A stretch of DNA of 32,000 nucleotides from Candidatus Saccharimonadota bacterium. GTDB lineage: Bacteria > Patescibacteriota > Microgenomatia > UBA1406 > GWC2-37-13. Below, piece by piece: positions 11,991 to 32,000 of the stretch. The stretch is taken from contig MGBH01000001.1 in assembly GCA_001790095.1 (NCBI GenBank), forward strand, positions 30,001 through 62,000, given 5' to 3'. Made by a program: the position numbers and the translations under genes. The notes beneath the pieces were generated by a model. The model was not told where the DNA came from. It searched no databases and was given only the letters and a program-made list of their open reading frames with translations. The number at the start of each line of letters is the position of its first letter. Positions within the stretch are counted from its first letter, which is position 1.

Positions 11991-12647
11991 ATGAAAGAGA
12001 AAACATCTCCTACTCAGAAAGCTCTCAATATCTGGGCAATTATTCTTATTCTTTGGAGTATTTACCGAGCTCATTTTAAAACCGACCTGCCCATTTGGTT
12101 TGACGAATTTATCACAAAACCTCTTTTTTTTATTCTTCCCGTTTACTGGTATATTACCAAGGTAGAGGGAAAGCGGTTCTTTCAAGGTATTGATCTTCAT
12201 GTAAAAAGGATTTTACCCGATATTATTTTTGGTATTATCATAGGTAGTATCTTTTTATCTATTGGGTATCTTGGAGCTTCTTCACAATCAAAGGGATCTT
12301 TATTTCAACAACTGTTTACTTTGCAGTTTGTATCGATGTTTGCCGTTGCACTTATGACCAGCGTGAGTGAAGAGATACTATCGCGGGGATTTATTCTCAA
12401 ACGTTTATATGAAGAGTCAAAGAACATATTTAGTTCAATTACCATTTCAAGCATTCTATTCTTTTTTCTTCATATCCCGATGCTTTTTACCAGTGATTCA
12501 CTGGGGGGAGATATTATTCTGAAGGTGATGGTGACGGACCTTATACTAAGTATTGCAGTATCTATCCTTTACCTGCAACGGAAGAATCTTCTTCTTCCTA
12601 TCATAGTTCACGCCCTTTATAGTGTCAGTCTTTCATTTTTTCTCTAA
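11991..12647 (+). CDS. CPBP-family intramembrane glutamic metalloprotease (CAAX protease / Abi family)
   Basis: The three CPBP motifs are present: SEEILSRGF (EExxxR), FFFLHIP (FxxxH) and IIVHALYS (His). The protein is polytopic. The ORF-track start at 11955 is TTG; ATG at 11991 (MKEKTSPTQK) is preferred. Confidence 0.8.
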   Translation: MKEKTSPTQKALNIWAIILILWSIYRAHFKTDLPIWFDEFITKPLFFILPVYWYITKVEGKRFFQGIDLHVKRILPDIIFGIIIGSIFLSIGYLGASSQSKGSLFQQLFTLQFVSMFAVALMTSVSEEILSRGFILKRLYEESKNIFSSITISSILFFFLHIPMLFTSDSLGGDIILKVMVTDLILSIAVSILYLQRKNLLLPIIVHALYSVSLSFFL

Positions 12648-14254
12648 GTACCCTCATATATCTGAAACATCGTTTCGCTGAATACTTGGACAGACTTAAG
12701 TTTATCTGGCTCGATTTTTAACTCTGAAGGCATATTTTTAAAATCATCGATTGATCCAACGATTACTGAATTTTTTTCGACATCTCTTGGCCATTTAAAC
12801 TCAAATATAAACTTGTCAAATTTTTCTACCTGACCAAATCCATATTCATCAGCCGGAGTGAGTGAGGCTTGTTTTTGGTATTCCTTTGGTTGGATCTGTA
12901 GATAAAAAAGCATAAAAATATATGGCATTCCTACATCTTTCGTAATGTAAAAATGGTCGTATTTTGAATAGTTCTCCTTTATATATGTACCAAGTTCTTT
13001 ATATCCGCATTGCCAAGCGTGTATGACCGTTTTTCGTTTTGGGTAATGAAATAGATAAAAATCCCAGTCAAGCGTTTGAAAGAAAAGAAATAAAACCGCA
13101 ATACAAAATATAACAAGCAATCTATATTTATTTTTTGCTTGGCTTAAAAAAGTCACGAAGCCATAAGAACTGGATATATATAAAGGCACAAGGAGGAAAA
13201 CTGTGCGGGTGAGCGATCCTTTTGACCATGCAAGAGATGAAGAAAGGGGAGAAATAAAAAGAAGCAGCAATAAGAACCAACGCCACTTTTCTTTGTTTTT
13301 AAACAAATAGTAAAGTCCAATAAAAACAAACAGGTATTCAAGAGGTGTCATGATAGACATACCTGGATACCCGAAACGGGCATTTTCATCTCCGTTGACA
13401 ACGAGGAACTGAGGAGAAAAATAGGTTAAATGATCAAGAATAATTTCTTTTATTCCTATAAAAAGGGGATTGTACAGATAACGAATCCCTCCCTCTGTCT
13501 TAAGTTCGTCAATCTTCAGACTGAAACCTGCATTGTTTAAAAAAATGAGGTTTTTCAGCCGTTCGGGTTTATACACAAGATCTGTTATCCCAAAAAAACC
13601 AATCACGACAAAAAGCAGCACAAGCAGAAGTGTATTTTTTTGTTTCTGCAATAACATGTACAAGAATATGAACCCGAAAAAGAAAAGAACATAAAGTCTT
13701 CCCGGGTGATAACTGAAAAGAAGAAGTAGGGAAGTTATAAGAAAGAAAAAGAAACGCATTAATGAGGGTTTTTGAAGCGATTTGATAAGAAGATAACATG
13801 CGAGAGTGGTAAGAAATGCGGCCAGATAAGTCTCATGTGCATGACGGCTGACAATATGAAAACCAAGCGAAACACTACTTAATAAAGCAGCGACCAACCC
13901 CACTTTTTTTCCCTTAAACAGCTCAACGCTTAAAAGATATACAACAAAAGGAAAAAGAAATGAAAGCGATATGTTCAAAGCTCTGGTACCACCTTCGTTT
14001 AATCCGAAAATGGCGATAAAAGGAATAGATAAATATGAGTAAAGGGGCATTTTATAATCTCCAAATGATTTTAGTCGAAGTGGAAGCAGTGTGCCATATT
14101 CGTCCCGTCCCGTATTGAGAAGTGAATATGCGTTATATCCGAAAGCCGCTTCATCTGCGTTAAAGCATGGGGGAGTGGGATATTTCTGGAATATGCTAAA
14201 AAAAAGTGAAACAAAAGATATACCAATAAGAATAAGAAGAACTTTTTTATTCAT
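12644..14254 (-). CDS. GT-C glycosyltransferase, PMT/ArnT-like (GT39/GT83-type)
   Basis: 536 aa and polytopic. After TM1 comes FNADEAAFGYNAYSLLNTGRDEYGTLLPLRLKSFGDYKMPLYSYL, the DE-containing first loop typical of the PMT_2/ArnT family. There is a soluble C-terminal domain of about 130 aa. ATGA overlap with the upstream GT2 gene. Confidence 0.8.
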   Translation of the reverse strand: MNKKVLLILIGISFVSLFFSIFQKYPTPPCFNADEAAFGYNAYSLLNTGRDEYGTLLPLRLKSFGDYKMPLYSYLSIPFIAIFGLNEGGTRALNISLSFLFPFVVYLLSVELFKGKKVGLVAALLSSVSLGFHIVSRHAHETYLAAFLTTLACYLLIKSLQKPSLMRFFFFLITSLLLLFSYHPGRLYVLFFFGFIFLYMLLQKQKNTLLLVLLFVVIGFFGITDLVYKPERLKNLIFLNNAGFSLKIDELKTEGGIRYLYNPLFIGIKEIILDHLTYFSPQFLVVNGDENARFGYPGMSIMTPLEYLFVFIGLYYLFKNKEKWRWFLLLLLFISPLSSSLAWSKGSLTRTVFLLVPLYISSSYGFVTFLSQAKNKYRLLVIFCIAVLFLFFQTLDWDFYLFHYPKRKTVIHAWQCGYKELGTYIKENYSKYDHFYITKDVGMPYIFMLFYLQIQPKEYQKQASLTPADEYGFGQVEKFDKFIFEFKWPRDVEKNSVIVGSIDDFKNMPSELKIEPDKLKSVQVFSETMFQIYEGT

Positions 14255-15129
14255 ATAAATTTAGTCAATATTTGCTTATCGCTTAACTGATATTTGGTTT
14301 TTCTTTTGACTATGGCAGGTATTCGCCAGATTGCAGACAACAAACCCCATATAAATGCGTGATCCCTAAATATCATAATAGGTAATTTACTTGCTATATA
14401 AGCTAGATGTGACAATAATAACATTGTATCATCTATGTTTTTCCAGATGAATATAAACTGATTGCGATAAGCGATTTTTTTTATCGTAGAGACAGAAAAA
14501 AATTTTTTTATTGTTGATTCATGATGATGATCTACTATTATGTTCGGATCAAACAATATTTTGAATCCTTTCTTCCACGCCCGGTAGGATAGATCAACAT
14601 CTTCCCAATAAAAAGGCGAAAAAAGTTTGTCAAATCCTCCTATCTCTTCATATTTTTTCTTGTCAATAATGCATGCTCCTCCTTCAGCCCAGCCGTTTAT
14701 GCCAGCGTTTAAGTCCCCAGCTTTCTTATGGTGGAAAAAGCCGTCACGCCAGTAAATGGTATTTTTTCCAACAGTCATATTGTTTTGTTCGCGTTGGGCA
14801 AAGCTTATGGCAAAAAGAGTTTCGTCATCTCTTATCTTTGAAAGAGCTGATAAATACGACGTGTCATGCAGTAAAACATCGCTATTCAAGAGAATGACAT
14901 ATCTATTATTAGTATGTTTTATGCCTACGTCTATAGCACCAGCAAAACCGAGATTTGTTTTGTTTTCAACCAAAACAATATCTCCTTTAGGTAGATCCTC
15001 TTTTAAGCTTGATGATGGATCATCATTTACTATTACTACTTCGCACTGTGTCATCAGGGCTAGGTTCTGGTGAAGATTGTCTATGAGCTGACTTTTATTT
15101 TTAAACGTGGGTATGACAACGGATATCAT
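14251..15129 (-). CDS. glycosyltransferase family 2
   Basis: MISVVIPTFKN..., VVIVNDDPSS, NLGFAGAIDVGI, LLNSDV and GGACIIDKKKYEEIGGFDKLFSPFYWEDVDLSYRAWKKGFKI are GT-A/GT2 hallmarks. The C-terminal tail is hydrophobic. Confidence 0.85.
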   Translation of the reverse strand: MISVVIPTFKNKSQLIDNLHQNLALMTQCEVVIVNDDPSSSLKEDLPKGDIVLVENKTNLGFAGAIDVGIKHTNNRYVILLNSDVLLHDTSYLSALSKIRDDETLFAISFAQREQNNMTVGKNTIYWRDGFFHHKKAGDLNAGINGWAEGGACIIDKKKYEEIGGFDKLFSPFYWEDVDLSYRAWKKGFKILFDPNIIVDHHHESTIKKFFSVSTIKKIAYRNQFIFIWKNIDDTMLLLSHLAYIASKLPIMIFRDHAFIWGLLSAIWRIPAIVKRKTKYQLSDKQILTKFI

Positions 15130-16193
15130 AATAGTATTTTTTCCACCCGGGTTTTAAATAACTCATAACTAAAATGTTTGGAGACAAAATTTTTACCGTT
15201 TTTTTGCATCGTTTTATACTTTTGCTCATCAAAGATAAGTGCGTTTGTTTTTTGGATGACCTCATTTTGAGTATTAAAAAGATATCCATTATGACCTTCC
15301 TTAATAAGCTCCCTAGGTCCGCCTGCATTAAAACAAAAGGGGATGGATCCGGCAGCCATTGCCTCAAGTGGCGTCATCCCAAGATGTTCAACTCTTTCAG
15401 GTTGTTTATTTTCATCTGTGCCGAAGCCTGTAAAATGCCAAAAAAACATGGCTTTTCTATAATGCTCAAGAAGTTTTGTATAAGACAGGTTTGGCTCTAA
15501 AACGATGTTCTTATTATTAAGGGTTATAGTTTTTAAATCATTAAAATATGTTTCATCTTCTTTTTTGAGACCACCAACCAATATAAGTTTGAACTCAGGT
15601 TCTTTTTTCTGAAACTTATTGAATGTATCAACGATAAAGGAGTGTTTTTTTGAGTGAAGGTGTCCAAAAAATCTCCCCACAGAAAGAATAATCCTTTCTT
15701 TTTTACGGCCCAAATCAATACTTAGCAGATCATCACTGACATATGGATATATGATCTGAGATTGAATACTCCATTTAGATAACCATTTATGAGTATAAAA
15801 TGAATTTGAGATAAACTTGGCATTTATCATCTTCATTCGATTCAGGGGGTTTAAAGAATAGAGTTTTTTATTTGGTACCATACAAAAGATGACATTTTTT
15901 TTAGCTGATGAAAAAAAATAACTTCCATCTGTTACATATAAAAGAATGTCATATGTTTTAAGCTCTGATAATTTCTTAAGAAAAGAGGAAGACTGGAATA
16001 TATTTGGTCGAAAATGGAGATCTGTAAAGTTAAGGTTAAGTTTTGTTTTAATTAGTTCTCCCAGATCCTTGTTCCAAAAAACTGATGCTTCAAACCCATT
16101 TTGTTCAATTACTTGAAGGATGGATAGAATATGTTTTTCTCCACCGCCTAATACATCAAGATATGGATCATAAAGTGCGGCTTTTTTTTTCAT
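15126..16193 (-). CDS. glycosyltransferase family 4 (GT-B, retaining type)
   Basis: N-terminus LGGGEKHILSILQVIEQNGFEASVF. C-terminal EX7E motif in VEHLGMTPLEAMAAGSIPFCFNAGGPRELIKEGHNGYLF. Confidence 0.85.
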   Translation of the reverse strand: MKKKAALYDPYLDVLGGGEKHILSILQVIEQNGFEASVFWNKDLGELIKTKLNLNFTDLHFRPNIFQSSSFLKKLSELKTYDILLYVTDGSYFFSSAKKNVIFCMVPNKKLYSLNPLNRMKMINAKFISNSFYTHKWLSKWSIQSQIIYPYVSDDLLSIDLGRKKERIILSVGRFFGHLHSKKHSFIVDTFNKFQKKEPEFKLILVGGLKKEDETYFNDLKTITLNNKNIVLEPNLSYTKLLEHYRKAMFFWHFTGFGTDENKQPERVEHLGMTPLEAMAAGSIPFCFNAGGPRELIKEGHNGYLFNTQNEVIQKTNALIFDEQKYKTMQKNGKNFVSKHFSYELFKTRVEKILL

Positions 16194-16926
16194 ATAAAAA
16201 TAAATATGTTATCGTTTTGGAAAACGCTTGATATATTGATTCAATTATACCAATTTCTCCATCGAATAAGCCCTGTTTGGCAATAAGACGGCGCCATAGC
16301 TCACCAAAATATTTCCTAAAAAAAGTAAGTGTTGAAGCGGGTTTGTTTGCTTTAAATAACAGCTCAGATTCAATATTTTCAAACAAAACAGTTTTTTTTA
16401 CCATTGTCTCAAGGTTGCCATGGAAGTAGTGTAAAAATGGTTCTTGGAGATATCCCATCTTGCCTTCGACCTGAGGGGTTGAGTGGATATTTTTGGGCCA
16501 TAATCTAAAAGCCTCCCTATTAATAAGTCTCATCTGTTCATCCGGCCACCAACCGCCGTGTAGTAGCCATTTCTTTCCCCCAAATATATTCTTGCGAGGT
16601 ACTTTGTAATAGGTAAATTCATCAGACTGTATGACCTCTTTTATTTCGCGGGCAAGCTTATCTGTCATGCGTTCATCTGCGTCCAGTATCATGACCCATT
16701 TGGTATTAGTGTGTTTTATACCAAATTCCCGAGCCGGTTCAACATAGTGAGAGTGCGGACTAAACCTGACGATCTGAGCCTTGTGTTTTTTTGCGATTTC
16801 AACAGATCTATCAGTGCTTTCCATATCAGTTATGAAGATAGAATTAGTCAGCAGTTTTGCTGATACTATACAATCTTCAATATGCCTTTCTTCATTATGA
16901 ATTTGAATAAGTACAGAGATACTCAT
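16168..16926 (-). CDS. glycosyltransferase family 2, LgtF/WaaE-like subgroup (copy 1)
   Basis: ISVLIQIHNEERHIEDCI, ITDMESTDRS and the DxD-type motif ILDADERMT are present. The subgroup motif is VPRKNIFGGKKWLLHGGWWPDEQMRLINRE. It is a paralogue of 26928..27824. Confidence 0.85.
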   Translation of the reverse strand: MSISVLIQIHNEERHIEDCIVSAKLLTNSIFITDMESTDRSVEIAKKHKAQIVRFSPHSHYVEPAREFGIKHTNTKWVMILDADERMTDKLAREIKEVIQSDEFTYYKVPRKNIFGGKKWLLHGGWWPDEQMRLINREAFRLWPKNIHSTPQVEGKMGYLQEPFLHYFHGNLETMVKKTVLFENIESELLFKANKPASTLTFFRKYFGELWRRLIAKQGLFDGEIGIIESIYQAFSKTITYLFLYEKKSRTL

Positions 16927-16929: not shown

Positions 16930-18573
16930 TTAATTAAATATATAGAAATTCTTTTCACCTTTCCAGAGAGGATCGAGCTTTACGTAACGGAACTTGTTTG
17001 ACGTATTAAGAAGTAATTTCGTTTTGTCTGATATACAAACTTCATCAATTATGGCGAGTGTAGGTTGCGTAATGAATTCAAGTTCTCCCGAATTACATCC
17101 TTTAAAGACATTTTTGTGAAATGCAAACACATTTTGTTCTTTAATAAACTCTTTCTGTATCTTTGTTATGTCTTGATCTTTCTTCGGATAGAGAAAAATA
17201 TAGCTTAAGAAATAACTAAAAGGGTTTGAAAGGTGTATGGTGAAGGGTTTATCTTTTTGAATAAGGAATGCTGCAAGTTTTCGCTCATCTTCATGATACA
17301 GCTCAGACTGCAGGAGGGGACGATAAAAAGCATATCGATACATAAAGTCTCCTACCTGAAACAATATGACGGTACTACACAGGCCAATAAGTATATACTT
17401 CATATAAGTCTTTAATCTGGTCGCATACTGATAAAACCATATGAGACCGATCGCCATAACAAAACTGATTCCTACTCCCGAAAACAATGACCTGATTGAA
17501 AAACTAAGCGAATATATATTGATAGCAGAAGGTATAAGTCCAAGGATAGAGATGCCGGCAATCATGTAGTACTCCCTTATATTTTTATTGCCAAGCTGCA
17601 AAAGTCCCATTAAGAGAAACAATGCAAAAAAAGGATAGAATTGACCCGTAATACTATTGCTATAGATAGGTACATAGTCTCCTGTATTAAATAAATAAGC
17701 TGTACTTAGCCCCTGCATGATATTTGCAATAAGATAACGCGTGATAAATACAACCTTATTGTTTATCAAATATGAAAAAAGAGAAGGGTTATGATCGTTG
17801 GAGCGGGATGTGTTAACTTCATTTTGTATTCGTTCACGTGCAAAAAAAACTATCTCGGTGGAACTCCTTGTCAGCATATTTTCTTCAATTTGCATACTGA
17901 TAAAAAGAAGCACTGCAAAAAAACAAATAAATAGTAAAGAAAGCAGAACGGTTTTTCTTATATTTTTTTTGCTTATATACGACCATAATTCAAAATAGAT
18001 AAAGGCACTTGGAAGAAGTGGTCGGATACCCTGGTAAGAAAAAAAAGCAAGAAAATAAAAGAAAAATGCAAATACATATCTTTTTTTTATTTGAGTAAAA
18101 AGAGCCAGTAAAAAGATAGGGAATGCGATATTTATCTCAAGAGCAAGGCGGCTTATATGAAAAACCCAGGGACTAAACGAAAAAATAATACTGGTAAGAA
18201 TGCTTAAATCTTTTCGTCTTAAGAGAGCAAATAATAATTCAAACACAAGAAGAGGAATAAAGGATGATGGAAGAAGGTATATTAACCTGGATGATGTAAC
18301 TGTTTGAGGAATGCCAGCAAGCCAAAAAGGGATGCCGTAATACATGGCAAAGGGAGGAGCGTGAGGTGAAATATGCTCAAACTGCAGGGGCGTATTTATA
18401 CCATATAAATCTTTGCCTGTTTTGGCCAAAGAATACTGAGTTAGAACAGTATCTCTTTCATCATACAAAAGAAAGGTCTTATCCAAGTGTGGTAAGCGGA
18501 TAAGAAAAAAGAGAAAAACGATAACAAGAACAACCCTTCTTGTTTTGATATACTGCTTGATTTTTTTATCCAT
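16930..18573 (-). CDS. GT-C membrane glycosyltransferase, PMT/ArnT-like (copy 1 of a paralogous pair)
   Basis: The ORF-track start at 18582 is TTG; ATG at 18573 gives MDKKIKQYIK. The first loop is LYDERDTVLTQYSLAKTGKDLYG. The protein is polytopic with a C-terminal soluble domain. It is colinear with 25303..26916. Confidence 0.75.
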   Translation of the reverse strand: MDKKIKQYIKTRRVVLVIVFLFFLIRLPHLDKTFLLYDERDTVLTQYSLAKTGKDLYGINTPLQFEHISPHAPPFAMYYGIPFWLAGIPQTVTSSRLIYLLPSSFIPLLVFELLFALLRRKDLSILTSIIFSFSPWVFHISRLALEINIAFPIFLLALFTQIKKRYVFAFFFYFLAFFSYQGIRPLLPSAFIYFELWSYISKKNIRKTVLLSLLFICFFAVLLFISMQIEENMLTRSSTEIVFFARERIQNEVNTSRSNDHNPSLFSYLINNKVVFITRYLIANIMQGLSTAYLFNTGDYVPIYSNSITGQFYPFFALFLLMGLLQLGNKNIREYYMIAGISILGLIPSAINIYSLSFSIRSLFSGVGISFVMAIGLIWFYQYATRLKTYMKYILIGLCSTVILFQVGDFMYRYAFYRPLLQSELYHEDERKLAAFLIQKDKPFTIHLSNPFSYFLSYIFLYPKKDQDITKIQKEFIKEQNVFAFHKNVFKGCNSGELEFITQPTLAIIDEVCISDKTKLLLNTSNKFRYVKLDPLWKGEKNFYIFN

Positions 18574-18606
18574 ACAAAGCAATTTTATATTATACTATAT
18601 ACTGAC
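18574..18606. promoter_or_regulatory. AT-rich divergent promoter region between two GT-C genes
   Basis: This 33-bp gap (aaagcaattttatattatactatatactgac) contains overlapping TATACT/TATATT -10-like hexamers only 4-16 nt from the GTG start at 18607. It is the only non-coding DNA between the two divergent blocks. Confidence 0.3.
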
Positions 18607-22779: not shown

Positions 22780-23621
22780 TTACAGATAGAATTTAAGAAA
22801 TCAGAAAGATAATTCTTCAAAAGATGAAACCTTGTTTTTAAGGGAGCATACATGAGCCCAAAACGAAGCTGATTTTGTCTTTGGTACTGCTGATGTATTA
22901 TAGATCCGGAACCGCCAGTTGACGCTGCATTCTTATGCCAAATAACGATCTCTGGATTATAGTAAAGAGGGAATCCTGCTTTTTTTGCGCGTTCGCAATA
23001 GTCTGCATCCTCGTAATACAAAAAATATCCTTCATCCCATTTACCCATTTTTTCCTCCACTTCTTTGTTATAGCACATGAGGCAACCGGTGATAAAGTCT
23101 GTCTTGCCAAATGAATTGTATTGCCTTTCATCTATCTCATCTACTCCTCTATGGGTGGTGGTGCAATTTTTCCAATCGTTTATACCTCCTGCATACCAAA
23201 ATACTTTTCCAAGGTCCTCTTTTCTATACCGGGCTTTATGATACTCATATCCAGCTTCGTAAAATATCTTACCTCCAATAAGAGATGATGGATGATGGAG
23301 GAGGCTGTATTTTACCTTTTCTACAAAGTTTTTACTTACTACAACGTCGCTATTCATCACTGCAAACATACGATAACCTTCATGTGCTGCTTGATCTATG
23401 GCTATGTTTACTCCATGCGCATATCCCTTATTTTTTCCTGGGATATACGTCACATAGTTTGGGTAATCATAGTGTTGTTTGTTATCACTGAGGTCGGCGA
23501 CAAAAATACGAAAGCCAGAATCGGTTTGTCTATCAAATGAAGCAAAATAGTCTGTAAGGATGGTATAATTCTTATATATAACAGTGATAACTGCCAAAGT
23601 ATGAGACATAATATTATTCAT
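22767..23621 (-). CDS. glycosyltransferase family 2 (WbbL/rhamnosyltransferase-like)
   Basis: LAVITVIYKNY, IFVADLSDN, NKGYAHGVNIAI, MNSDVVV and ITGCLMCYNKEVEEKMGKWDEGYFLYYEDADYCERAKKAGFPLYY are present. The ORF-track start at 23642 is TTG; ATG candidates are at 23621 and 23609. Confidence 0.85.
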   Translation of the reverse strand: MNNIMSHTLAVITVIYKNYTILTDYFASFDRQTDSGFRIFVADLSDNKQHYDYPNYVTYIPGKNKGYAHGVNIAIDQAAHEGYRMFAVMNSDVVVSKNFVEKVKYSLLHHPSSLIGGKIFYEAGYEYHKARYRKEDLGKVFWYAGGINDWKNCTTTHRGVDEIDERQYNSFGKTDFITGCLMCYNKEVEEKMGKWDEGYFLYYEDADYCERAKKAGFPLYYNPEIVIWHKNAASTGGSGSIIHQQYQRQNQLRFGLMYAPLKTRFHLLKNYLSDFLNSICKCNE

Positions 23622-25302: not shown

Positions 25303-26916
25303 ATGATTTCATATTTCAAAAGGAATAAAAGATTGTTTTTATTCACGTTCATCTTCTTTCTTATTCAATTACCATTTCTTGATCAGTTATCCCTTTTACG
25401 TGGTGAGCGAGACATCGTTTTGTCGGGTTTCTCACTTGCCAAAACTGGCAAGGATCTGTATGGAAAACTCTTTTCACTTGAGTTTCTTGGCATTGATCCC
25501 TTTGTTCCTTTTGTACCGATATACATAGCTGCATTGTGGTGGCTCATAATCCCAATAAAAACAGTCTTCTTAGCAAGGCTCCTGTTTGTGTTACTCTCAC
25601 TTTCATTGCCATTTCTTATATATGAAATAGTCAAACATATAATCCGTAATGAAAGAATTTCTTTTTGGACCTCGGTTGTGTTTTGCCTTAGTCCTGGAGT
25701 ATTTCACCTAACAAGGCTTACTCTTGAAATAGGCGTTGCATTTCCGCTTCTTTTAGGAGGGATACTAGCGTTTCTAAAGAAAAAAAGAATCGTATCCTAT
25801 TTATTCTTTTTCCTTAGTTTTTTTTCCTATCATGGATTTCGGCCGCTTATTCCTGTACTACTTCTTTATTTGGAGATATTTGACTATGTGCAAAAAAAAG
25901 AACTGTCAATATTTATAAAGAAGAGCATAGTACATATTTTGTTTTTTTTGGGGTTGGTTTTGATAAGTATTGTCATTGATGGCAGATTGATGAAAGAACG
26001 GATTAGCGACGTTGCATTTTCCGGTTTTGGCAAATGGTCAAATGAGATTATCTATAACAGAAATACTTCAGTTGCCCCTCAGTTGGTAGCTTCGGTGTTT
26101 GATAACAAAATCACTGCTATGTTGCAGTATATGAGAGATGTCGTTATAAGAGGAATTGATTTAAGATATCTGTTTCTGATTGGAGATGAATCTTCTCTAT
26201 ATGCTACAACATTTACCGGACAGTTTTTTATCACTTCTATGCTCTTTTATTTTCTAGGAATTCTGTTACTTGGAAAAAAATTAAAGTGGAGTTATTATTA
26301 TATCGTCGGTTTTATAGCGGTTGGACTTGTTCCATCGATTGTGAATATAAGCTATGTAAGTTATTCGATCCGATCGATACTTTCCTCAGTTGGGTTTGCC
26401 TTCATTATCGCATATGGACTGGTCGGTTTTATTGATTTTTTAAAAACACAAAAACCAGTCATAAAAAAATTAATAATGACGGTGATATTCCTTTCACTAC
26501 TTATTGAGATCACTTTTTTTGTATATAACTATTATGCCAGGCGCTTCATAACCATGTCTGAGATGTTTTTTGAAAGTGAACGCAGGATCGCACAATATAT
26601 GATCAATCACCCCAATCCTTACAAAATCTATACAAACAATCCAAGGAGTATTTATTTCAGCTATTTATTTTTTAATAATAAAGTAGATATGACAAAAGCT
26701 CAAGGAGTTACAAAAAAAGGAGCACCATACACGATAGATGGATTTGAAATTGCGGTTTGTCCCAATAATCCTCAATTTACAAAAAAGATGGAGATTATCA
26801 TGGACGCATGTCTGACTGAGAAAGGTTATGATCAAATTCAGGAACAAACAAAACCAAATGATGTAATACCATACACAAACTACTCCTTTAGAAATGCTTA
26901 TTTTATTTTTGATTAA
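25303..26916 (+). CDS. GT-C membrane glycosyltransferase, PMT/ArnT-like (copy 2 of paralogous pair)
   Basis: The first loop is LRGERDIVLSGFSLAKTGKDLYG. Blocks shared with 16930..18573: SP.VFH..RL.LEI..AFP, FFSY.G.RPL.P, TGQF and GL.PS..NI...S.SIRS. Confidence 0.75.
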   Translation: MISYFKRNKRLFLFTFIFFLIQLPFLDQLSLLRGERDIVLSGFSLAKTGKDLYGKLFSLEFLGIDPFVPFVPIYIAALWWLIIPIKTVFLARLLFVLLSLSLPFLIYEIVKHIIRNERISFWTSVVFCLSPGVFHLTRLTLEIGVAFPLLLGGILAFLKKKRIVSYLFFFLSFFSYHGFRPLIPVLLLYLEIFDYVQKKELSIFIKKSIVHILFFLGLVLISIVIDGRLMKERISDVAFSGFGKWSNEIIYNRNTSVAPQLVASVFDNKITAMLQYMRDVVIRGIDLRYLFLIGDESSLYATTFTGQFFITSMLFYFLGILLLGKKLKWSYYYIVGFIAVGLVPSIVNISYVSYSIRSILSSVGFAFIIAYGLVGFIDFLKTQKPVIKKLIMTVIFLSLLIEITFFVYNYYARRFITMSEMFFESERRIAQYMINHPNPYKIYTNNPRSIYFSYLFFNNKVDMTKAQGVTKKGAPYTIDGFEIAVCPNNPQFTKKMEIIMDACLTEKGYDQIQEQTKPNDVIPYTNYSFRNAYFIFD

Positions 26917-26927: not shown

Positions 26928-27824
26928 CTAATCTATTATCTTTTCAACCATTTTTTCCTTAAGGGTTACTGAGTCTTTTTTTGCTTTCCAGAAAAGTGAC
27001 TCCTTATAAAGTTTCCCAAGAAAATTTGACGTTTCTTGTAGTAACGTTTTTTCGCTTGATTTGAAATTAAATTTAAGAAGTTCAAGGTAGTAGAAATACA
27101 CAAGAAAGGGATAAAACAGTTGAAATAAGGCGAGTATAAAACCATGGATTCCATCCTTATAGCCGTCATTTGCAAAGAATCGACTGATGAACTCAGAAAT
27201 GCCCTTTTTCATAGTATCGGGAAGATGTAGTAATTGTTTTCGTTCATGAAACAGAGTAGCTTCTGATTTGGCATACCTCATCGCTTTGGTGAGATATTCA
27301 TCGATGGATTCATAATTAAAATGACAGATTGCGTACGATTCTTCTGCTTTGATTTGAAATCCTTTGCCTGATACGCGAGGTTGTTTATGGATTTCATGCG
27401 GCCAGACAACAGAATCTTTCTTAAATAATCTGATCTGTTCATCAGGCCACCAACGACTGTGGCGAATCCATTTCCCAAAAATAATATTTTTTCTTGGTAT
27501 TGAAAAATAATCATATTGAGTAAGTTTGGATTGCAGTTCATTTTTCAAATCTGTCGTGAGTATCTCATCTGGATCAAGAAACAGAATATATTCCTCTTTT
27601 GCATACATTTTCAATTTCTCGCGGATGACTTCAACATATGGTACTTTTTCATCGATTTGGACGATACGAATAGTTTTATATGAAGCAAGCTTCTTTTTAA
27701 GGTCTTGATCGATACCGATATCTGCAACTATGATCTCTTTTACGAAAGCCTTGACTGAATCAATTGCTTCAATAGCGTGAGGCGGATTTCCCTTAATCAC
27801 AAGTATTGCAGATATCTGGTTCAT
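26928..27824 (-). CDS. glycosyltransferase family 2, LgtF/WaaE-like subgroup (copy 2)
   Basis: ISAILVIKGN, LFLDPDEILT and IPRKNIIFGKWIRHSRWWPDEQIRLFKKD are present. It is colinear with 16168..16926 but has a C-terminal extension of about 45 aa. Confidence 0.8.
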   Translation of the reverse strand: MNQISAILVIKGNPPHAIEAIDSVKAFVKEIIVADIGIDQDLKKKLASYKTIRIVQIDEKVPYVEVIREKLKMYAKEEYILFLDPDEILTTDLKNELQSKLTQYDYFSIPRKNIIFGKWIRHSRWWPDEQIRLFKKDSVVWPHEIHKQPRVSGKGFQIKAEESYAICHFNYESIDEYLTKAMRYAKSEATLFHERKQLLHLPDTMKKGISEFISRFFANDGYKDGIHGFILALFQLFYPFLVYFYYLELLKFNFKSSEKTLLQETSNFLGKLYKESLFWKAKKDSVTLKEKMVEKIID

Positions 27825-27827: not shown

Positions 27828-29273
27828 TTATTTTACAAATAATGCACGTAATTCTCCAACAAGATTTGTTTTGAATACGGTTAACAAAATAATGTAATAG
27901 GAAAGCGCACCAACTATAAATGATGCAAAAAAGCCAACGTACGGGTGGGGAATTATTCTTATTAATGTGACGATAATGACTCCCATCAACAAGGCGCTTA
28001 TAACCGATCTATGTATTGAGTCAAAAAGATGAAAGCTTACGAAAGCACGAGCTTTGTATGAAACCATGACCGAGGACAGGGCAATGATAAGCAGTACGAA
28101 AGGAAAGCCATAGTATCCAAAGAGATTAGTAAAAAGTGGAGTAAGAACCCATGTGGTTATGGTCCATCCAAACATGAAAGTAAATGAAATCTTGACCTTC
28201 CCTAATGCGTTGTATAGATTCATAAAGGGTGAGGAATATGAGGAAAAAAAGGAAGCAAGGCAAAAAATATAAAAAAGCGGAAGAGCAGGAGCCCACTTAC
28301 TGTATTTGGGTATTATATAGACCATCTTTTCCATAAAAACAGCCATCATTATTAAGGTTGGAGCAAGTACCAAGGTCTGATAATAAAGAATTCGATCGAT
28401 AACTGTACCGACTTTTTCTTTATCGTGTTGTATGCGGGAGATAACAGGGAAAAGAACACGACTTATATTATCCATGATAATTCTGATCGGTGCCTCAGCC
28501 CATTTTTTTGCCCAACCAATATATCCCAAGGCTTCAAATCCGAGTATTTTTCCTAAGAAAAGGATGATAAGATCATCTTTAAATAAGGCGAGAAAAGAGG
28601 ACGCTTGAAAGGGAAGTCCAAAAGAAAGGAGTTCTTTTAAACTTTTTTTTGAGATGCCAAGCTGTGGGCGCCATGGTGATAAAATATAGATAAGAATAAG
28701 GCCAATTATAGCCCTTAATACAACGGCGATAGTAAAGCTTTGGAGCTCAAATTTTAAAAGGGCAAAAATAATAACCGACAGATAAAAAACGGTGTTTTCA
28801 ACAATTTGAACAAGAACGATTCTTTGAAATTTAATTTTTCTTTCAAGAAGTATTGAGGGGATGGTTTTGAGCGAAGAAATAAAAAAAGAGATAAGAAGCA
28901 CCCAGTATAGATATATACCTGAGGGGGGGAGTTTATAAAATTCTCCTACAAAACCCGTGATCAGGAAGCCAATGGATATCCCTGTAATAATCATGAGCTG
29001 TTGGATAGTAAAGGTCGTTTTGATATCATCCTCATGTACTTCTTTTTTTTGTACGAGTGAAGCTGCAAGGCCTATATCTGAAAAATAGTTCAGAACAGAT
29101 ATGATAGAAAGAGTAGTAATATACATACCAAAGATCTTGGGAGAAAGAAGGATGGTTACGATAAGATTGGCAGCCAAACCCAGAAAAGCGGAGTATCCGC
29201 TTTGAAAAAAGAGGCTGAGAGTGCTTATCAGAGTCTTTCTTTTTATTTGAGAATAGGTTTCAAGTTTATCCAT
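27828..29273 (-). CDS. Wzx-type oligo/polysaccharide flippase (MOP superfamily, Polysacc_synt family)
   Basis: 481 aa with about 14 TM helices. The N-terminal block KRKTLISTLSLFFQSGYSAFLGLAANLIVTILLSPKIFGMYITTLSIISVLNYFSDIGLAASLVQKKE is typical of Wzx/TuaB-like flippases and not of MurJ. Confidence 0.8.
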   Translation of the reverse strand: MDKLETYSQIKRKTLISTLSLFFQSGYSAFLGLAANLIVTILLSPKIFGMYITTLSIISVLNYFSDIGLAASLVQKKEVHEDDIKTTFTIQQLMIITGISIGFLITGFVGEFYKLPPSGIYLYWVLLISFFISSLKTIPSILLERKIKFQRIVLVQIVENTVFYLSVIIFALLKFELQSFTIAVVLRAIIGLILIYILSPWRPQLGISKKSLKELLSFGLPFQASSFLALFKDDLIILFLGKILGFEALGYIGWAKKWAEAPIRIIMDNISRVLFPVISRIQHDKEKVGTVIDRILYYQTLVLAPTLIMMAVFMEKMVYIIPKYSKWAPALPLFYIFCLASFFSSYSSPFMNLYNALGKVKISFTFMFGWTITTWVLTPLFTNLFGYYGFPFVLLIIALSSVMVSYKARAFVSFHLFDSIHRSVISALLMGVIIVTLIRIIPHPYVGFFASFIVGALSYYIILLTVFKTNLVGELRALFVK

Positions 29274-30970
29274 AAAGGTTTATAGAAAATGAGCAAACAG
29301 AGAAAAATATATACGGTAAACGATATATAATTACTTGTTTTTTCAATACCTGTTTCATTATAAAAAATACGTACAGTGGATGGTTGAGAAAGCTTTATTA
29401 TGGGGCGTCCTAACTGATCAAATAGATTTGGTTTAATCTGCTTGTCATTTATTTGTATTTCCCAGAAAGGGAAATAATGAATATTTATTTTTATCGTCAT
29501 AGGTTTATTGATTTGTACCTCCTTGAAAAAATGACTGTTTTTTAAGATCTTAAACGTTGAGGAATCTTTGATCTCAACCGGTCCATTTACCATCTCTATT
29601 TTTGTGTTTTGTGGATTTGTTTGAAGATCAAAGCTTCTCCAATAAGAATAATCAGCACTAACGGGTAAATATTCAGCGATATTATATGCAACAGTTTGTG
29701 TAACATAATTTTTTGAAAGGTATGCGCTTGCATATTCATCATAGCTCATAAGCCATGGTTTTGAAAAAAACTTCCCAGACATAAAGAGAAGAAAAGCAAA
29801 CATAAGTATTATTAGATAGGGTGCTATTTTATGTAAAGTGTCCTGTAAAACCTCTGAAAAGTATGCAGAAAAAAAGCCAAGTGAAAACATTCCAAATACA
29901 AGAAATCGCCAAGGAAACTGAAAGATCGCAAGTATAGGCTTGAATAATTCCCAGATAATATCTGATTGATAAGTCGTTAAAAAAAGTGATCCAATACCCA
30001 GCAAAAGAATAAATAGTGTGATGGCACGATAGTGGGAAGATCTCTTTTTTTGCCGTATGAAATCAAATATTAAAGCAAATAATCCAAAAGTTCCAAGAAG
30101 TATGTGTATTTTTCCTAAAGTAAAAGGCATACCGTCATCTTGGCAGCCCTTGGCTGATCCCGAAAATTCCCAAAGGGGAGAACTCCAGATTTGCCACGCA
30201 CAAAGAAAATGATCTTGATAATGAGTGATTTGAGCATTTTGTGATGCATATGTTAGAGGTAACTCTATTACGGCAGGTATTAGAAAATAAGCAGACAAAA
30301 GAAGTCCGATACCCAACATCATAAAGTTTCTTTTTTTATTGTTGAGAAGAAGTACAAATACAGAGGCAATACCTACAAAAAGGAGAGAAAACACATTGTG
30401 TACAGTAAAAGTAAAAGAAATGATAAGGGATGAAATCGCAAATATATATGGAGACAACTTTCTTGAATTGAGCACTATCAAGTACAGAGCAAGTGGGAAA
30501 AGGACCAAAAACCAACACTCAGCAAGGTTTCCCCGTACAAATATTTCAATCGCAAACCATAAGGAAGATGCGTATGTTATCCCTCCCATTACGCTGGGAA
30601 GAAATCCAAAAAATAGTCTCAGGAATAAAAACATCGAGGTAAAAGACAGTATCAGACTCAAAAAAAAGGAGAATTTCAATGCCATAGGAATAGGAAGACC
30701 AATAAGATGTAATCCTGTTGTTACCCAATATGAAAACGGTGCATAAAAATTGAAGACAGGGAATCCTAGATTATGGGAAAGCTCAGGAGCAAGTCTTGGA
30801 GGTATATGGCCAGATTTGATATTGAGAGCCATCTGTTGGATTCGGGCAGCCTGTGTCTCATCGTGAAAATTAAACATGCGCGAATCAAAGGGGTTCAGAG
30901 TTTTTCCTAAAGTTATGGCAATAATGCCACAGATAAGAAAAAAGACTACGACTCTGATTCTTTTATCCAT
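29243..30970 (-). CDS. large polytopic membrane protein, GT-C-like (unclassified)
   Basis: 575 aa. After TM1 comes FNFHDETQAARIQQMALNIKSGHIPPRLAPELSHNLGFPVFNFYAPFSYW. There are at least 10 hydrophobic segments and a C-terminal soluble domain of about 150 aa. The GT-C assignment is an inference from architecture and context. Confidence 0.55.
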   Translation of the reverse strand: MDKRIRVVVFFLICGIIAITLGKTLNPFDSRMFNFHDETQAARIQQMALNIKSGHIPPRLAPELSHNLGFPVFNFYAPFSYWVTTGLHLIGLPIPMALKFSFFLSLILSFTSMFLFLRLFFGFLPSVMGGITYASSLWFAIEIFVRGNLAECWFLVLFPLALYLIVLNSRKLSPYIFAISSLIISFTFTVHNVFSLLFVGIASVFVLLLNNKKRNFMMLGIGLLLSAYFLIPAVIELPLTYASQNAQITHYQDHFLCAWQIWSSPLWEFSGSAKGCQDDGMPFTLGKIHILLGTFGLFALIFDFIRQKKRSSHYRAITLFILLLGIGSLFLTTYQSDIIWELFKPILAIFQFPWRFLVFGMFSLGFFSAYFSEVLQDTLHKIAPYLIILMFAFLLFMSGKFFSKPWLMSYDEYASAYLSKNYVTQTVAYNIAEYLPVSADYSYWRSFDLQTNPQNTKIEMVNGPVEIKDSSTFKILKNSHFFKEVQINKPMTIKINIHYFPFWEIQINDKQIKPNLFDQLGRPIIKLSQPSTVRIFYNETGIEKTSNYISFTVYIFLCLLIFYKPLWINLKPILK

Positions 30971-30971
30971 T

Positions 30972-32000
30972 TTATTTAGTCAATTCAAGCAAATGTATGA
31001 CCGAATCGCGATTTGGTTTATAGTAGGATTTAATCAGTTTGACTGGCCAGTTGGTTGGGTAGGTTAGTTGATGTGCAAGTACTACATATACTTTTCTTTC
31101 TCCGATTTCCTTTTGATGGTTAATAAGCTCCTTTTCTCCAAGCGGCCAATATCCAACGATTGAGATAGTGTCATCAGGGCGAAGAAAGGTGTCGAGTATA
31201 TCTCCTGACATACCAAAATTCCCTTCAGCCAGTATAACTACCGGTTTTTCCTTTGTTTGTTCCCGCGCAAAAGCAACTATTTCTTTTGCACCATATCCAA
31301 CCGTTTCTCCAATCACATATTGTCCACGATCTATTGGGGGGAATATTATCCCTTTATAGTTAAACCACATAAAGTAATCAAACACAAGTGTTGATGCGAT
31401 TATGAAAGTGAGAGAAAGCAATACTACTCTGTTGTTTTTTATTTGAGAAAGAAAATATGCAGCAAGTATTACAAACAAAGAACCGAAAAATATGATATAT
31501 CTGGGAAACAACACCCGAGTCAAGAATGAAATACCGATATAAGGAATCAAAATCCATGCACAAATATAAAAGAAATAACGTTTGTTTTTTTGAAACAACT
31601 TAAAGAGTCCAAGGAAACCAAATGGTACGATCACCCACCCAAGCTCAGAAAAAACGTAGTAGGGTATAGTCTTTATATTGCTTATGAAGACGGCTAGAGG
31701 GTTTTTCATCCACTCATCAAAAGTCATAACAAATGTTTTATTTTTTTCTTCAACAAAGTGTAGGAAGGGTGAGAGTCGTTGGATATTGTAAATAGCAAAT
31801 GCAATACATGCGGAGAGAGCAAATAAAAATAGAAAATTTACGAGCTTGATAAGAAATCTTTTTGTATTTTTTTCCCAAAAAAGAATAGGGCCAAGAGTAG
31901 ACAGCCCCATAAATAGCCTTGATGATGACTTGGCTAATAGACCCATACCTCCAAATAATCCAAATAGAAGCGATACATCAAGTCTTTGATTTTTTGCAAG
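30972..32000 (-). CDS. polytopic membrane protein, C-terminal part of a GT-C/ArnT-like protein (N-terminus beyond the window end)
   Basis: The ORF track begins at Met 31946, but the frame stays open through 32000 (..LAKNQRLDVSLLFGLFGGMGLLAKSS..). The gene is therefore almost certainly 5'-truncated by the window. It has several TM helices and a soluble C-terminal domain of about 120 aa. Confidence 0.55.
   Translation of the reverse strand, partial: LAKNQRLDVSLLFGLFGGMGLLAKSSSRLFMGLSTLGPILFWEKNTKRFLIKLVNFLFLFALSACIAFAIYNIQRLSPFLHFVEEKNKTFVMTFDEWMKNPLAVFISNIKTIPYYVFSELGWVIVPFGFLGLFKLFQKNKRYFFYICAWILIPYIGISFLTRVLFPRYIIFFGSLFVILAAYFLSQIKNNRVVLLSLTFIIASTLVFDYFMWFNYKGIIFPPIDRGQYVIGETVGYGAKEIVAFAREQTKEKPVVILAEGNFGMSGDILDTFLRPDDTISIVGYWPLGEKELINHQKEIGERKVYVVLAHQLTYPTNWPVKLIKSYYKPNRDSVIHLLELTK

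Follow-up and report, generated by a model that had tools for sequence, protein, structure and literature searches.

A conserved cluster of GT-C-type membrane proteins, glycosyltransferases and a flippase in Candidatus Roizmanbacteria

In described systems, PMT/PMT_2-type enzymes transfer single sugars onto proteins or lipid A, and the MptA/B family is known for polymer elongation. In Haloferax, AglS, together with AglD and AglR, adds a terminal sugar from a polyprenyl-phosphate sugar. PIG-U has the GT-C fold and is non-catalytic. Relatives of PMT/PMT_2 and MptA/B enzymes are brought together in one chromosomal cluster of Candidatus Roizmanbacteria (Microgenomates, CPR/Patescibacteria); a search of the literature found no publication on this cluster. 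Candidatus Roizmanbacteria is an ultra-small groundwater bacterium. The locus offers a tangible starting point for exploring the surface of these ultra-small cells, which is uncharted.

Extent, content and conservation of the cluster

The window is the 32,000-nucleotide stretch of DNA that was analysed. The cluster starts at position 12644, spans ~27 kb and extends ~7.7 kb beyond the window edge. From 12644 to the edge it encodes nine polytopic membrane proteins (M1-M9), four GT2 and one GT4 glycosyltransferases (G1-G5), and one Wzx-type flippase (Flp), and no other gene class is present between 12644 and 32000. A sequence-only reading had recognized the nine membrane-protein genes, which are borne out at the coordinates given, with small corrections to the starts of M2 and of the glycosyltransferase gene G4, and Pfam agrees with its assignment of the remaining genes. 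The genes form a densely packed mosaic that uses both strands. The ~7.7 kb past the edge contain five further GT-C genes (PMT/PMT_2 or related) and a gene for a polyprenyl-phosphate-sugar synthase (PPS). The cluster therefore has 14 GT-C genes of ~7 sequence families, and not the nine ending at 32000 that had been described; the reported absence of a GtrB/Ppm1-type synthase was an artefact of the window edge.

Gene order is conserved in ~45 related species, anchored to dnaG-rpoD, and the cluster genes are 1:1 orthologues at 40-77% identity across these species; the block as a whole is kept in related genomes. M1, G1-G3, M4, G4, M6, Flp, M8/M9, PPS, and M13 make up a fixed core, and the other GT-C slots are variable; this pattern suggests a scaffold glycan that is shared among species and decorated differently in each. 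M5, which fills one of the variable slots, occurs in only a few related loci. M6, the most conserved GT-C, is found in 51 species genomes, and G4 neighbours it in nearly all related loci (directly adjacent in most).

Families, folds and acidic motifs of the membrane proteins

All nine membrane proteins in the window are assigned to the GT-C type and none to a transporter family, by family match (M1, M4, M5, and M9), through homologues (M2, M7, and M8), or by modelled fold (M3 and M6). M1 (12644..14254, minus strand; 536 aa) is of PMT/ArnT type, matching Pfam PMT at 25.6 bits (cut-off 22.7) and PMT_2 at 22.8 bits; its UniRef name is 'ArnT-like N-terminal domain'. M9 (30972..32000, minus strand) is a PMT_2-type GT-C with the C-terminal 342 of its 504 codons in the window. 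Its frame is open to the window edge, as had been noted, and the full 504-aa protein of the source contig (L001 8485-9999) matches PMT_2 at 35.5 bits. M4 (20274..21374, plus strand) belongs to the MptA/MptB (DUF2029/GT87-like) family; PF26314 (MptA_B_family) is recorded for the protein, its UniRef name is 'DUF2029', and its match to TIGR03459 (alpha-(1->6)-mannosyltransferase A; 1.3e-9) is far under the equivalog cut-off. M5 (21361..22779, minus strand) carries DUF2079 of the GT-C clan (94.2 bits, E 1.2e-26).

M2 (16930..18573, minus strand; alternative starts ATG 18573 or TTG 18582) and M7 (25303..26916, plus strand) are paralogues (36% identity, BLAST 2e-79) within a PMT_2-like family of 1911 representatives. 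M2 has no direct Pfam match and is related to M1 at 2e-7 (BLAST); among 40 family members scanned, PMT_2 is detected in 17 (best 4.9e-15) and PMT in 8. M8 (29243..30970, minus strand) is of the PTPS_related (PF10131) type of the GT-C clan. Its own Pfam score is weak (E=8.2); among the homologues listed (~41-56% identity) about half have PF10131 and a few have PMT_2, and its UniRef name is 'PTPS-related domain'. A2334_04170 of Candidatus Roizmanbacteria RIFOXYB2_FULL_38_10 has the same sequence as M8 (100% identity). Apart from M2 and M7, the GT-C paralogues of the cluster are at most 28% identical, and such ancient divergence argues for distinct, non-redundant functions.

The family of M3 (18607..20277, plus strand) is small: its 45 homologues come without exception from Patescibacteria/Microgenomates and carry no Pfam domain, and M3 itself matches no model of Pfam or NCBIfam. 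Its AlphaFold model (pLDDT 92.6, pTM 0.92) predicts a GT-C fold: the best 24 Foldseek matches in the PDB are all GT-C (TM ~0.5), including DPY19 (2.5e-7), AglB, STT3, AftA, PglB, and ArnT. In hhalign, M3 aligns to the PMT_2-like profile with a probability of 89% (E 2e-6). M6 (23601..25298, plus strand) belongs to a sequence-isolated family of 269 homologues (48-77% identity) that all lack Pfam domains, and its model (pLDDT 90.7) predicts a GT-C fold. The only Foldseek matches of M6 below 1e-3 are STT3 (1.9e-4) and PglB (twice), followed by weaker matches to AglB, AftA, PIG-U, DPY19, ALG3, and Pmt1; its likeness to oligosaccharyltransferases is one of Foldseek ranking, with TM-scores of 0.36-0.47.

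The acidic motifs quoted in the sequence-only reading are present and conserved far beyond chance. D and E are kept in 19/19 orthologues of M1 (FNADEAAFGY) and in 22/23 of M9 (FNDEG), and D in 38/38 of M4 (LSHDFFNY) and 4/4 of M5. In the M2/M7 family (40 sequences) E39 is invariant and D38 occurs in at least 90%, with E-R-D of LRGERD kept in 13/13 M7 orthologues. D57 of M3 is invariant in 33 sequences, as are D37, F33, and H36 of M8 in 30, and Y46-P-D-E-F50 (YPDEF) and FFDHH of M6 in 40. Hydropathy and positive-inside analysis places the K/R-rich N-termini inside, and the acidic motif lies 0-20 residues past the first hydrophobic helix, opening a loop of 35-84 residues. The motif of M4 follows a third hydrophobic segment and a short K/R-rich loop, for which the outside face is still predicted. 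The motifs are thus predicted to face outward, as had been proposed. The earlier reading had staked itself on glycosyltransferase families, non-cytoplasmic motifs, and genes that are not scattered, and it survives on all three points.

Cytoplasmic glycosyltransferases, flippase and donor synthase

G1 (14251..15129, minus strand) is a GT2 (Glycos_transf_2, 52 bits; Glyco_tranf_2_3, 46 bits). G2 (15126..16193, minus strand) is a GT4 glycosyltransferase of GT-B fold (Glycos_transf_1, 80.8 bits) with weak NCBIfam matches, among them to glycolipid synthases like Mgs (1.6e-4). The GT2s G3 (16168..16926, minus strand; Glycos_transf_2, 57 bits) and G5 (26928..27824, minus strand; Glycos_transf_2, 24.9 bits, cut-off 23.3) are paralogues (27% identity, BLAST E 2e-29), and the best solved relatives of G3 are GmaR (1.3e-9) and SunS. 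G4 (22767..23609, minus strand) is a rhamnosyltransferase-like GT2 (Glyco_tranf_2_3, 39 bits; GT2, 30 bits; TIGR01556 rhamnosyltransferase subfamily, 1.9e-11). Its ORF spans 22767-23642; from its likeliest start, 23609 (JGI call, 280 aa), G4 overlaps head to head with M6, which begins at 23601. The description of all five as soluble is approximate, as G1 and G5 each have one C-terminal hydrophobic segment (residues 236-254 and 226-244, respectively).

Flp (27828..29273, minus strand) is a MOP-family (Wzx-type) lipid-linked-glycan flippase with ~10 hydrophobic segments, matching Polysacc_synt_3 at 170.6 bits and Polysacc_synt at 74.9 bits in Pfam, and the MOP flippase (6.8e-36) and O-glycosylation flippase (5e-31) models in NCBIfam. 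PPS (249 aa), whose gene belongs to the same operon-like run and lies ~4.4 kb outside the window, is a DPMS/GtrB/ArnC-type GT2 without transmembrane helices and the only polyprenyl-phosphate-sugar synthase of the cluster. Among solved structures it is closest to Pyrococcus DPMS (1.2e-20), ArnC, and GtrB, and among NCBIfam models to PgfS, ArnC, haloarchaeal dolichyl-phosphate hexose transferase, AglJ, and PpgS, with NCBIfam scores all far under the equivalog cut-offs. Neither an initiating phosphoglycosyltransferase nor a Wzy, Wzz, or ligase is recognized in the cluster or the related loci sampled, whose sampled unassigned ORFs likewise gave none of the first three; for the cluster, the earlier report that these three are missing holds. 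In some relatives nucleotide-sugar enzymes are encoded inside the cluster.

A proposed surface-glycan pathway and its alternatives

With about even confidence, we propose that the locus specifies a machinery that depends on lipid carriers and assembles a surface glycoconjugate, for the most part on the outside of the membrane. The sequence-only interpretation is partly supported, and its underlying observation is confirmed. We infer the type of donor, the order of steps, the en-bloc role of M6, the acceptor, and the product as follows. From nucleotide sugars, G1-G5 would assemble a short glycan carried by a membrane lipid or a polyprenyl, and Flp would bring this glycan to the other side of the membrane. 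PPS would put single sugars on polyprenyl phosphate, and the 14 GT-C enzymes would work in series on one glycan, transferring sugars from lipid-linked donors to the growing glycan or to surface proteins, with the conserved Asp/Glu past the first helix as the putative outward-facing catalytic residue of each. An en-bloc transfer step would best be assigned to M6, the most conserved and most OST-like of the GT-C enzymes. This proposal best explains the GT-C identity, invariant acidic residues, and predicted outward motifs; PPS in the same gene run, the flippase, and five cytoplasmic glycosyltransferases; the conserved gene order, the relatives' nucleotide-sugar enzymes, and the ancient paralogues; and the five additional GT-C genes and the top fold matches of M3 and M6, which are GT-C enzymes with lipid-linked donors. 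It is weakened by the missing initiating phosphoglycosyltransferase, Wzy, Wzz, and ligase in the cluster and the loci sampled, by the low NCBIfam scores of PPS and its lack of transmembrane helices, and by an OST likeness of M6 that comes from Foldseek ranking, with neither a WWDYG motif nor an STT3 profile match.

The GT-C enzymes might instead act in parallel, as PMT/ArnT/YfhO-like single-sugar transferases that use one or a few polyprenyl-phosphate-sugars to modify different acceptors (surface proteins, pili, peptidoglycan or teichoic-acid-like polymers, or membrane lipids), with the flippase and cytoplasmic glycosyltransferases forming a separate, co-located pathway. This is a tentative but real possibility, consistent with the PMT/PMT_2-like character of 8 of the 14 GT-C proteins, the single PPS, and the resemblance of G3 and G5 to protein-glycosylating GT2s; independent action would also easily explain the gain and loss of accessory GT-C genes around a retained core. 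However, the strict order in which GT-C genes are interleaved with those for cytoplasmic glycosyltransferases and flippase in ~45 species argues for a single functional unit, at least five GT-C families are retained as 1:1 orthologues, and M4 is of the polymer-elongating MptA/B type.

In a Pgl/Agl-type pathway that glycosylates proteins through N- or O-linkages, the cytoplasmic glycosyltransferases would make a lipid-linked oligosaccharide for Flp to flip, an OST-like GT-C (M6 and/or M3) would pass it en bloc to surface proteins, and the remaining GT-C enzymes would, in the manner of AglS, add terminal sugars from a polyprenyl-phosphate sugar. The fold matches of M6 and M3 to STT3 and PglB (and of M3 to AglB) point this way, as do the O-glycosylation model matched by Flp, the AglJ and haloarchaeal relatives of PPS, and an invariant [YF]W[IVY]GPYEP motif of M6, ~25 residues past the last membrane helix and placed similarly to the WWDYG of oligosaccharyltransferases. 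WWDYG itself is absent, however, no sequence or profile comparison links either protein to STT3 or PglB, non-OST GT-C enzymes (DPY19, AftA, ArnT) are matched with similar TM-scores, and an initiating phosphoglycosyltransferase is not seen in the cluster or sampled loci, making this pathway unlikely.

That the membrane proteins are transporters or structural GT-C-fold proteins like PIG-U, with incidental acidic motifs, is very improbable: seven of the nine have no direct match in a Pfam-A scan and PIG-U is among the weaker matches of M6, but every significant fold match of M3 and M6 is GT-C (transporters reach a probability of at most 0.12, TM ~0.1), homologue, Pfam, or NCBIfam evidence identifies the other seven, the acidic residues do not vary among orthologues, and the genes are linked to that for PPS. 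Least credible of all is the view of the locus as a strain-variable surface-antigen island, gained by horizontal transfer and comparable to an O-antigen or capsule locus, for although GT-C content differs among species, the genes form a two-strand mosaic, and the locus had been called an island, GC content shows no compositional break (0.32-0.37 within the cluster vs 0.33-0.39 outside), neither an integrase nor a tRNA or repeat boundary was detected, the site beside dnaG-rpoD-HTH-CAAX is common to most related genomes, and the divergence of core genes tracks that of the flanking genes.

Extent and gene content of the locus

The nine large membrane proteins encoded in the window (M1 to M9) are part of a locus that spans ~27 kb (window-equivalent positions 12644 to ~39724) and encodes 14 GT-C-type proteins, since the cluster runs on past the window edge as far as a MarR-type regulator gene and an HlyD-family gene, which mark its end. 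From 12644 to the edge, ORF analysis reproduced exactly the coordinates proposed by an earlier, sequence-only reading, together with its gene classes: the nine membrane proteins, four GT2 glycosyltransferases (G1, G3, G4, and G5), one GT4 glycosyltransferase (G2), and one MOP/Wzx-type flippase (Flp), which scores 170 bits with the Pfam model Polysacc_synt_3. The reading frame of M9 is still open at the edge; on the source contig the cluster extends for a further ~7.7 kb, containing in order the rest of M9 (504 aa, PMT_2), M10 (PMT), M11, M12 (PMT_2), the GT2 gene PPS, M13 (PMT_2), and M14, which matches the AZOBR_p60025 "cell surface glycopolymer formation" family (3e-9). Besides its GT-C set, which falls into about seven families, the locus encodes six GT-A/GT-B glycosyltransferases and one flippase, and its genes form at least five transcription units. 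At 100% identity, M8 matches A2334_04170 of Candidatus Roizmanbacteria bacterium RIFOXYB2_FULL_38_10.

Positions 1-12600 of the window are occupied by ordinary chromosomal genes, encoding a CAP-domain protein, VanZ, an LTD-domain protein, a PcsB-like protein, FtsX, FtsE, RF2, a LytR_C-domain protein, DnaG, RpoD, a 72-aa XRE-type HTH protein, and a CAAX/Rce1-type protease. The PcsB-like protein (2852-5701, minus strand) combines a coiled coil with a C39-like peptidase domain and is encoded directly upstream of FtsX and FtsE; together they have the appearance of a module that controls a peptidoglycan hydrolase in cell division, here in a CPR genome. The LytR_C protein (497 aa; 7212-8705, minus strand) has this C-terminal domain as its sole domain, with no recognisable LCP catalytic domain and a weakly PilM-like N-terminus (E = 0.02). 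The HTH gene (11733-11951, plus strand; HTH_3, 5e-14), which lies between rpoD and the CAAX protease gene and was absent from the earlier ORF list, occurs in the same place in related genomes (at 1527-1745 of locus L002, for example), and its product may regulate the adjoining cluster.

Two gene pairs of the cluster are divergent: the starts of M2 and M3 (18573-18607) are 24-33 bp apart, and G4 and M6 (23601-23642), whose coding regions meet head to head, share at least 9 bp. Such near-coincident starts mean that the promoters must lie within neighbouring genes. A promoter and terminator scan based on the sigma-70 consensus performed at chance (79 promoter-like sites, 78 expected), and scans of the window for Rfam families and tRNA genes returned none.

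Family, fold, and topology of the membrane proteins

GT-C enzymes are polytopic, with about 7-13 or more transmembrane helices, and their accepted catalytic hallmark is a DxD, DD, or DE motif that lies in the first luminal loop and closely follows the first transmembrane helix (PMC6801728). All nine window proteins are polytopic in this sense, each with 7-10 strong hydrophobic segments in a hydropathy scan, and for each of them one or more independent lines of evidence back the proposal that all nine are GT-C proteins. M1 exceeds the Pfam cut-off for PMT (25.6 bits, cut-off 22.7), M5 matches DUF2079 at 94 bits, again above the cut-off, and full-length M9 exceeds the cut-off for PMT_2 (35.5 bits, cut-off 26.1); M10 to M13, past the edge, also exceed the gathering threshold for PF02366 or PF13231. 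M2 and M7 are paralogues (36% identity) that have no Pfam match and do not themselves reach the PMT or PMT_2 threshold; they are tied to these families by BLAST to M1 and through their homologues, in that 17 of 40 diverse members of the M2/M7 family (1911 representatives) match PMT_2 (best 4.9e-15) and eight match PMT. M4 has PF26314 (MptA_B family) on its protein record, the source of this assignment, the model being absent from the Pfam copy scanned; it also matches TIGR03459 (1.3e-9), at 37.5 bits against an equivalog cut-off of 439.4, and judged by its sequence M4 would be a distant relative of MptA/MptB and not an MptA equivalog. M8 falls below the gathering threshold of PF10131 (PTPS_related; 5.2 bits, E = 8.2, threshold 26.4), and the domain is present in about half of the M8 homologues listed, at roughly 41-56% identity, so that M8 belongs to PF10131 by transitivity only. 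We take PF10131 to be part of Pfam's GT-C clan.

Pfam and NCBIfam scans up to E = 10 gave no usable match for M2, M3, M6, M7, or M8, and neither M3 and its 45 homologues nor M6 and its 269 matched any Pfam-A or NCBIfam model. Searches of the PDB by sequence or profile (M1 and M4; family profiles for M2/M7, M3, M6, and M8) found no solved relative. For M3 and M6 the assignment comes from AlphaFold models built from family alignments (pLDDT 92.6 and 90.7), in which ~13 long helices are followed by a C-terminal mixed alpha/beta domain. The best 24 Foldseek matches of M3 in the PDB are all GT-C proteins, with DPY19 first (2.5e-7) and AglB, STT3, AftA, PglB, and ArnT among the others (TM ~0.5). For M6, STT3 and PglB are the only matches below 1e-3; AglB, AftA, PIG-U, DPY19, ALG3, and Pmt1 come next. 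Profile alignment with hhalign relates M3 to a PMT_2-like profile across the N-terminal helices (89% probability); M6 aligns marginally with the same profile (24% probability), with both acidic motifs aligned, and no relationship to the M3 or M8 profiles was found. A transporter reading of M3 and M6 was rejected, as their Foldseek matches to MFS proteins have a probability of at most 0.12 and TM ~0.1. The family and fold evidence is all of GT-C type, and it does not bear out the alternative that most of the nine proteins are transporters or other non-glycosyltransferases. NCBI annotates all of them as hypothetical; most carry automatic UniRef names for "RgtA/B/C/D-like", "ArnT-like", "DUF2029", or "PTPS-related" domain proteins, so their GT-C nature was not wholly unannotated before.

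The oligosaccharyltransferase (OST) folds among the matches do not extend to sequence: neither M3 nor M6 has a Pfam STT3 match at E values up to 10 or a PDB sequence-profile match, and the WWDYG motif was not seen on reading either sequence. Because the fold similarity is real, though sequence profiles fail to support it, the models suggest that M3 and M6 may work in an OST-like manner, yet not as members of the STT3/PglB/AglB family. M6, which is among the best-conserved genes of the locus, may represent a new, OST-like type of en-bloc glycan transferase.

The acidic motif pointed out in the sequence-only reading proved invariant, or almost so, in its acidic residues in every family of the window proteins. 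It starts 0-20 residues past the first hydrophobic helix and opens a loop of 35-84 residues, and the N-terminal tails are rich in K and R; in M4 the motif comes after the third hydrophobic segment, past a short basic loop, and is still on the outside face. The motifs are thus placed outside by the positive-inside heuristic, the one method of topology assignment used, and no cytoplasmic placement was seen. Conserved cysteine pairs occur in predicted external regions of M3 (a CxxxxC beta-hairpin, residues 37-49), M8 (C257/C276), and the M2 family (C493/C513), consistent with disulfide formation on the extracytoplasmic side.

Conservation among related genomes

Relatives of M6 were found in 51 species-representative genomes; wherever the title is informative, it reads Roizmanbacteria, Microgenomates, or Patescibacteria. 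Three of the remaining titles are just "bacterium", and ~23 are "uncultured Gammaproteobacteria", apparently wrongly. The MAGs so titled (L006, L007, L009, L011-L013, L018, L019, L021-L027, L032, L037, L050, L053, and L054) keep the gene order of Roizmanbacteria, at 45-76% identity to the genes of the latter; their titles seem to be placeholders or labelling errors.

Gene order is kept in roughly 45 of the 51 genomes, as expected if the block is conserved as a unit: dnaG-rpoD-(HTH)-CAAX-M1-G1-G2-G3-[variable GT-C]-M4-(M5)-G4/M6, followed by [variable GT-C]-(G5)-Flp-M8-M9-M10...PPS-M13. G4 precedes M6 in some genomes and follows it in others. The core genes are 1:1 orthologues (40-77% identity), and the variable slots are filled by M2, M3, M5, M7, and M10 to M13. 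With the exception of M2/M7, no paralogues in the locus exceed 28% identity, a divergence by which they would be ancient and on which recent tandem amplification was rejected. The conserved order, the 1:1 core orthologues, and the apparent age of the paralogues point to a lineage-wide chromosomal feature, not a mobile island. The latter was also rejected because GC content is uniform (0.32-0.39 across the window, with no compositional break), the dnaG-rpoD-CAAX anchor is constant across species, and tRNA genes are absent; a check of the cluster's flanking genes in the window turned up no integrase.

Proposed donor supply and assembly, and known analogues

PPS (window-equivalent 36389-37138) encodes a 249-aa GT2 protein whose nearest known relatives are polyprenyl-phosphate-sugar synthases. 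The best PDB relatives are the Pyrococcus dolichyl-phosphate mannose synthase DPMS (5mlz, 1.2e-20), ArnC, and GtrB (sll0501), and the best NCBIfam relatives are PgfS, ArnC, dolichyl-phosphate hexose transferase, AglJ, and PpgS, all below equivalog cut-offs. It has no transmembrane helix, and as a GT-A GT2 protein most similar to such synthases it is predicted to be a polyprenyl-phosphate glycosyltransferase of the DPM1/DPMS/GtrB/ArnC type. The putative donors of the GT-C enzymes are polyprenyl-phosphate- or diphosphate-linked sugars, for which the presence of this synthase in the same cluster is indirect evidence. The earlier claim that a GtrB/Ppm1-type synthase is missing holds for the window but fails for the cluster, where the absence was an artefact of the window edge. 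The other absences stand: no initiating phosphoglycosyltransferase, Wzy, or Wzz is encoded in the cluster, models for Bac_transf/Glycos_transf_4, Wzy_C, and Wzz matched no cluster gene and no unassigned ORF sampled from related loci, and Wzx is the sole component of the Wzx/Wzy pathway in the locus. Nucleotide-sugar genes are likewise absent from the window; in a few relatives, nucleotide-sugar enzymes (NAD-dependent epimerase/dehydratase, UDP-glucose/GDP-mannose dehydrogenase) are encoded within or beside the cluster (L043, 14191-15093; L047, 11718-13025).

These components are consistent with the assembly, dependent on a lipid carrier, of a glycoconjugate for the cell surface, in which the cytoplasmic glycosyltransferases would assemble a lipid-linked glycan, Wzx would translocate it over the membrane, PPS would provide polyprenyl-phosphate sugar, and the GT-C enzymes would act at the outer face. 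We infer an assembly line of this kind. The likeliest reading, to which about even confidence is given, is that the GT-C enzymes act serially on one scaffold glycan with species-specific decoration; it is favoured because the interleaving of the genes is tight and conserved and several GT-C families are kept as single-copy orthologues. The GT-C enzymes might instead work in parallel, each independently modifying a different acceptor, a reading that is unlikely though not negligible. Protein glycosylation of the Pgl/Agl type, with M6 as the OST-like en-bloc transferase, overlaps with the serial reading and is improbable as a separate explanation. Non-enzymatic and mobile-island readings are effectively excluded.

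The locus works like several known systems, its closest analogues, but belongs to none of them. Emb/Aft and STT3 sequence membership is lacking, as are a phosphoglycosyltransferase, Wzy, and Wzz, and none of the analogues has nearly so many GT-Cs in one locus. One such analogue is the synthesis of LM/LAM and AG in Mycobacterium and Corynebacterium, which involves PimA/PimB (GT4), Ppm1 (GT2), and the GT-C enzymes PimE, MptA, MptB, MptC, Emb, and Aft. There, as is proposed here, cytoplasmic GT4/GT2 steps precede many different GT-Cs that use GT2-made polyprenyl-phosphate sugars outside; M4 would be a distant member of the MptA/B family, the best fold matches of M3 include AftA, and the number of distinct GT-Cs is comparable. 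However, the locus has no Emb/Aft-type (Arabinose_trans) sequence match and no genes for decaprenyl-phospho-arabinose synthesis, its 14 GT-C genes lie together in 27 kb whereas their counterparts are scattered, it has a Wzx-type flippase, and it is found in a CPR bacterium with a reduced wall and a ~1-Mb genome.

A further group of analogues is made up of the two- and three-component systems ArnC/ArnT, RgtE with RgtA-D of Rhizobium, Gtr, CsbB/YfhO, and actinobacterial Ppm1/Pmt protein O-mannosylation, in which GT2 synthases make polyprenyl-phosphate sugars for outside GT-Cs of the PMT/ArnT type that modify a pre-made acceptor. PPS matches ArnC and GtrB, M1 has a PMT/ArnT-like domain, and several of the proteins are "RgtA/B/C/D-like" in UniRef. 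Those systems have one to four GT-Cs, in contrast to 14 from about seven families here, with five cytoplasmic glycosyltransferases and a Wzx flippase.

In S-layer N-glycosylation of Haloferax volcanii, the Agl proteins include AglJ/AglD (GT2), AglG/I/E, the Wzx-like AglR, the oligosaccharyltransferase AglB, and the GT-C enzyme AglS. The locus would share with it a GT2 of the dolichyl-phosphate-hexose synthase type, a Wzx-like flippase that accompanies cytoplasmic glycosyltransferases, and an OST-fold GT-C beside another GT-C to which sugar addition from a lipid-phosphate sugar falls; PPS matches AglJ and the haloarchaeal dolichyl-phosphate hexose transferase, and M3 and M6 match AglB by fold. 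It differs in having no sequence-level STT3/AglB membership or WWDYG motif, 14 GT-Cs instead of two, and a bacterial host. The Campylobacter Pgl locus likewise unites an OST-fold GT-C (the oligosaccharyltransferase PglB) with a flippase (PglK) and cytoplasmic Pgl glycosyltransferases, and PglB is among the top three fold matches of M6; but Pgl has one GT-C, the initiating PglC, and sugar-synthesis genes, whereas PglC-type and sugar-synthesis genes are absent here and there are 13 extra GT-Cs and a polyprenyl-phosphate-sugar synthase.

A literature search found no description of GT-C clusters in CPR, Patescibacteria, or Roizmanbacteria, and to our knowledge 14 GT-Cs from about seven families in 27 kb would be the densest contiguous set described. 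It is tentatively proposed that the ultra-small Roizmanbacteria, with genomes of ~1 Mb, devote ~2% of the genome to one conserved locus for building, outside the membrane, an envelope glycopolymer or glycoprotein that is complex and specific to the lineage. If so, CPR bacteria would have in this locus their equivalent of LAM/AG assembly in mycobacteria or N-glycosylation in archaea, and it would be likely to determine how the cells attach to hosts and are recognised by phages. Episymbiotic attachment to hosts and recognition by phages are probably mediated by the CPR/Patescibacteria cell surface, which is essentially uncharacterised; for one large CPR lineage, the locus offers a testable set of genes, defined and conserved, for a major surface glycoconjugate. 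Two GT-C families without a model in the Pfam-A and NCBIfam copies searched are added by it, with M6 as a candidate for a new oligosaccharyltransferase-like activity. Extensive GT-C extracytoplasmic glycan assembly, for which Corynebacteriales, eukaryotes, and archaea have been the main objects of study, would also occur in bacteria whose genomes are strongly reduced. The layout of core genes and variable slots points to a source of naturally diverse glycans on which glycoengineering could draw.

The GT2 genes G3 (16168-16926) and G5 (26928-27824) are paralogous and, here as in L002 and other loci, usually lie beside a same-strand GT-C gene, most often of the M2/M7/PMT_2 type, which suggests duplicated GT2 plus GT-C modules. 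Among solved structures, G3 is closest to GmaR and SunS, two enzymes that glycosylate proteins.
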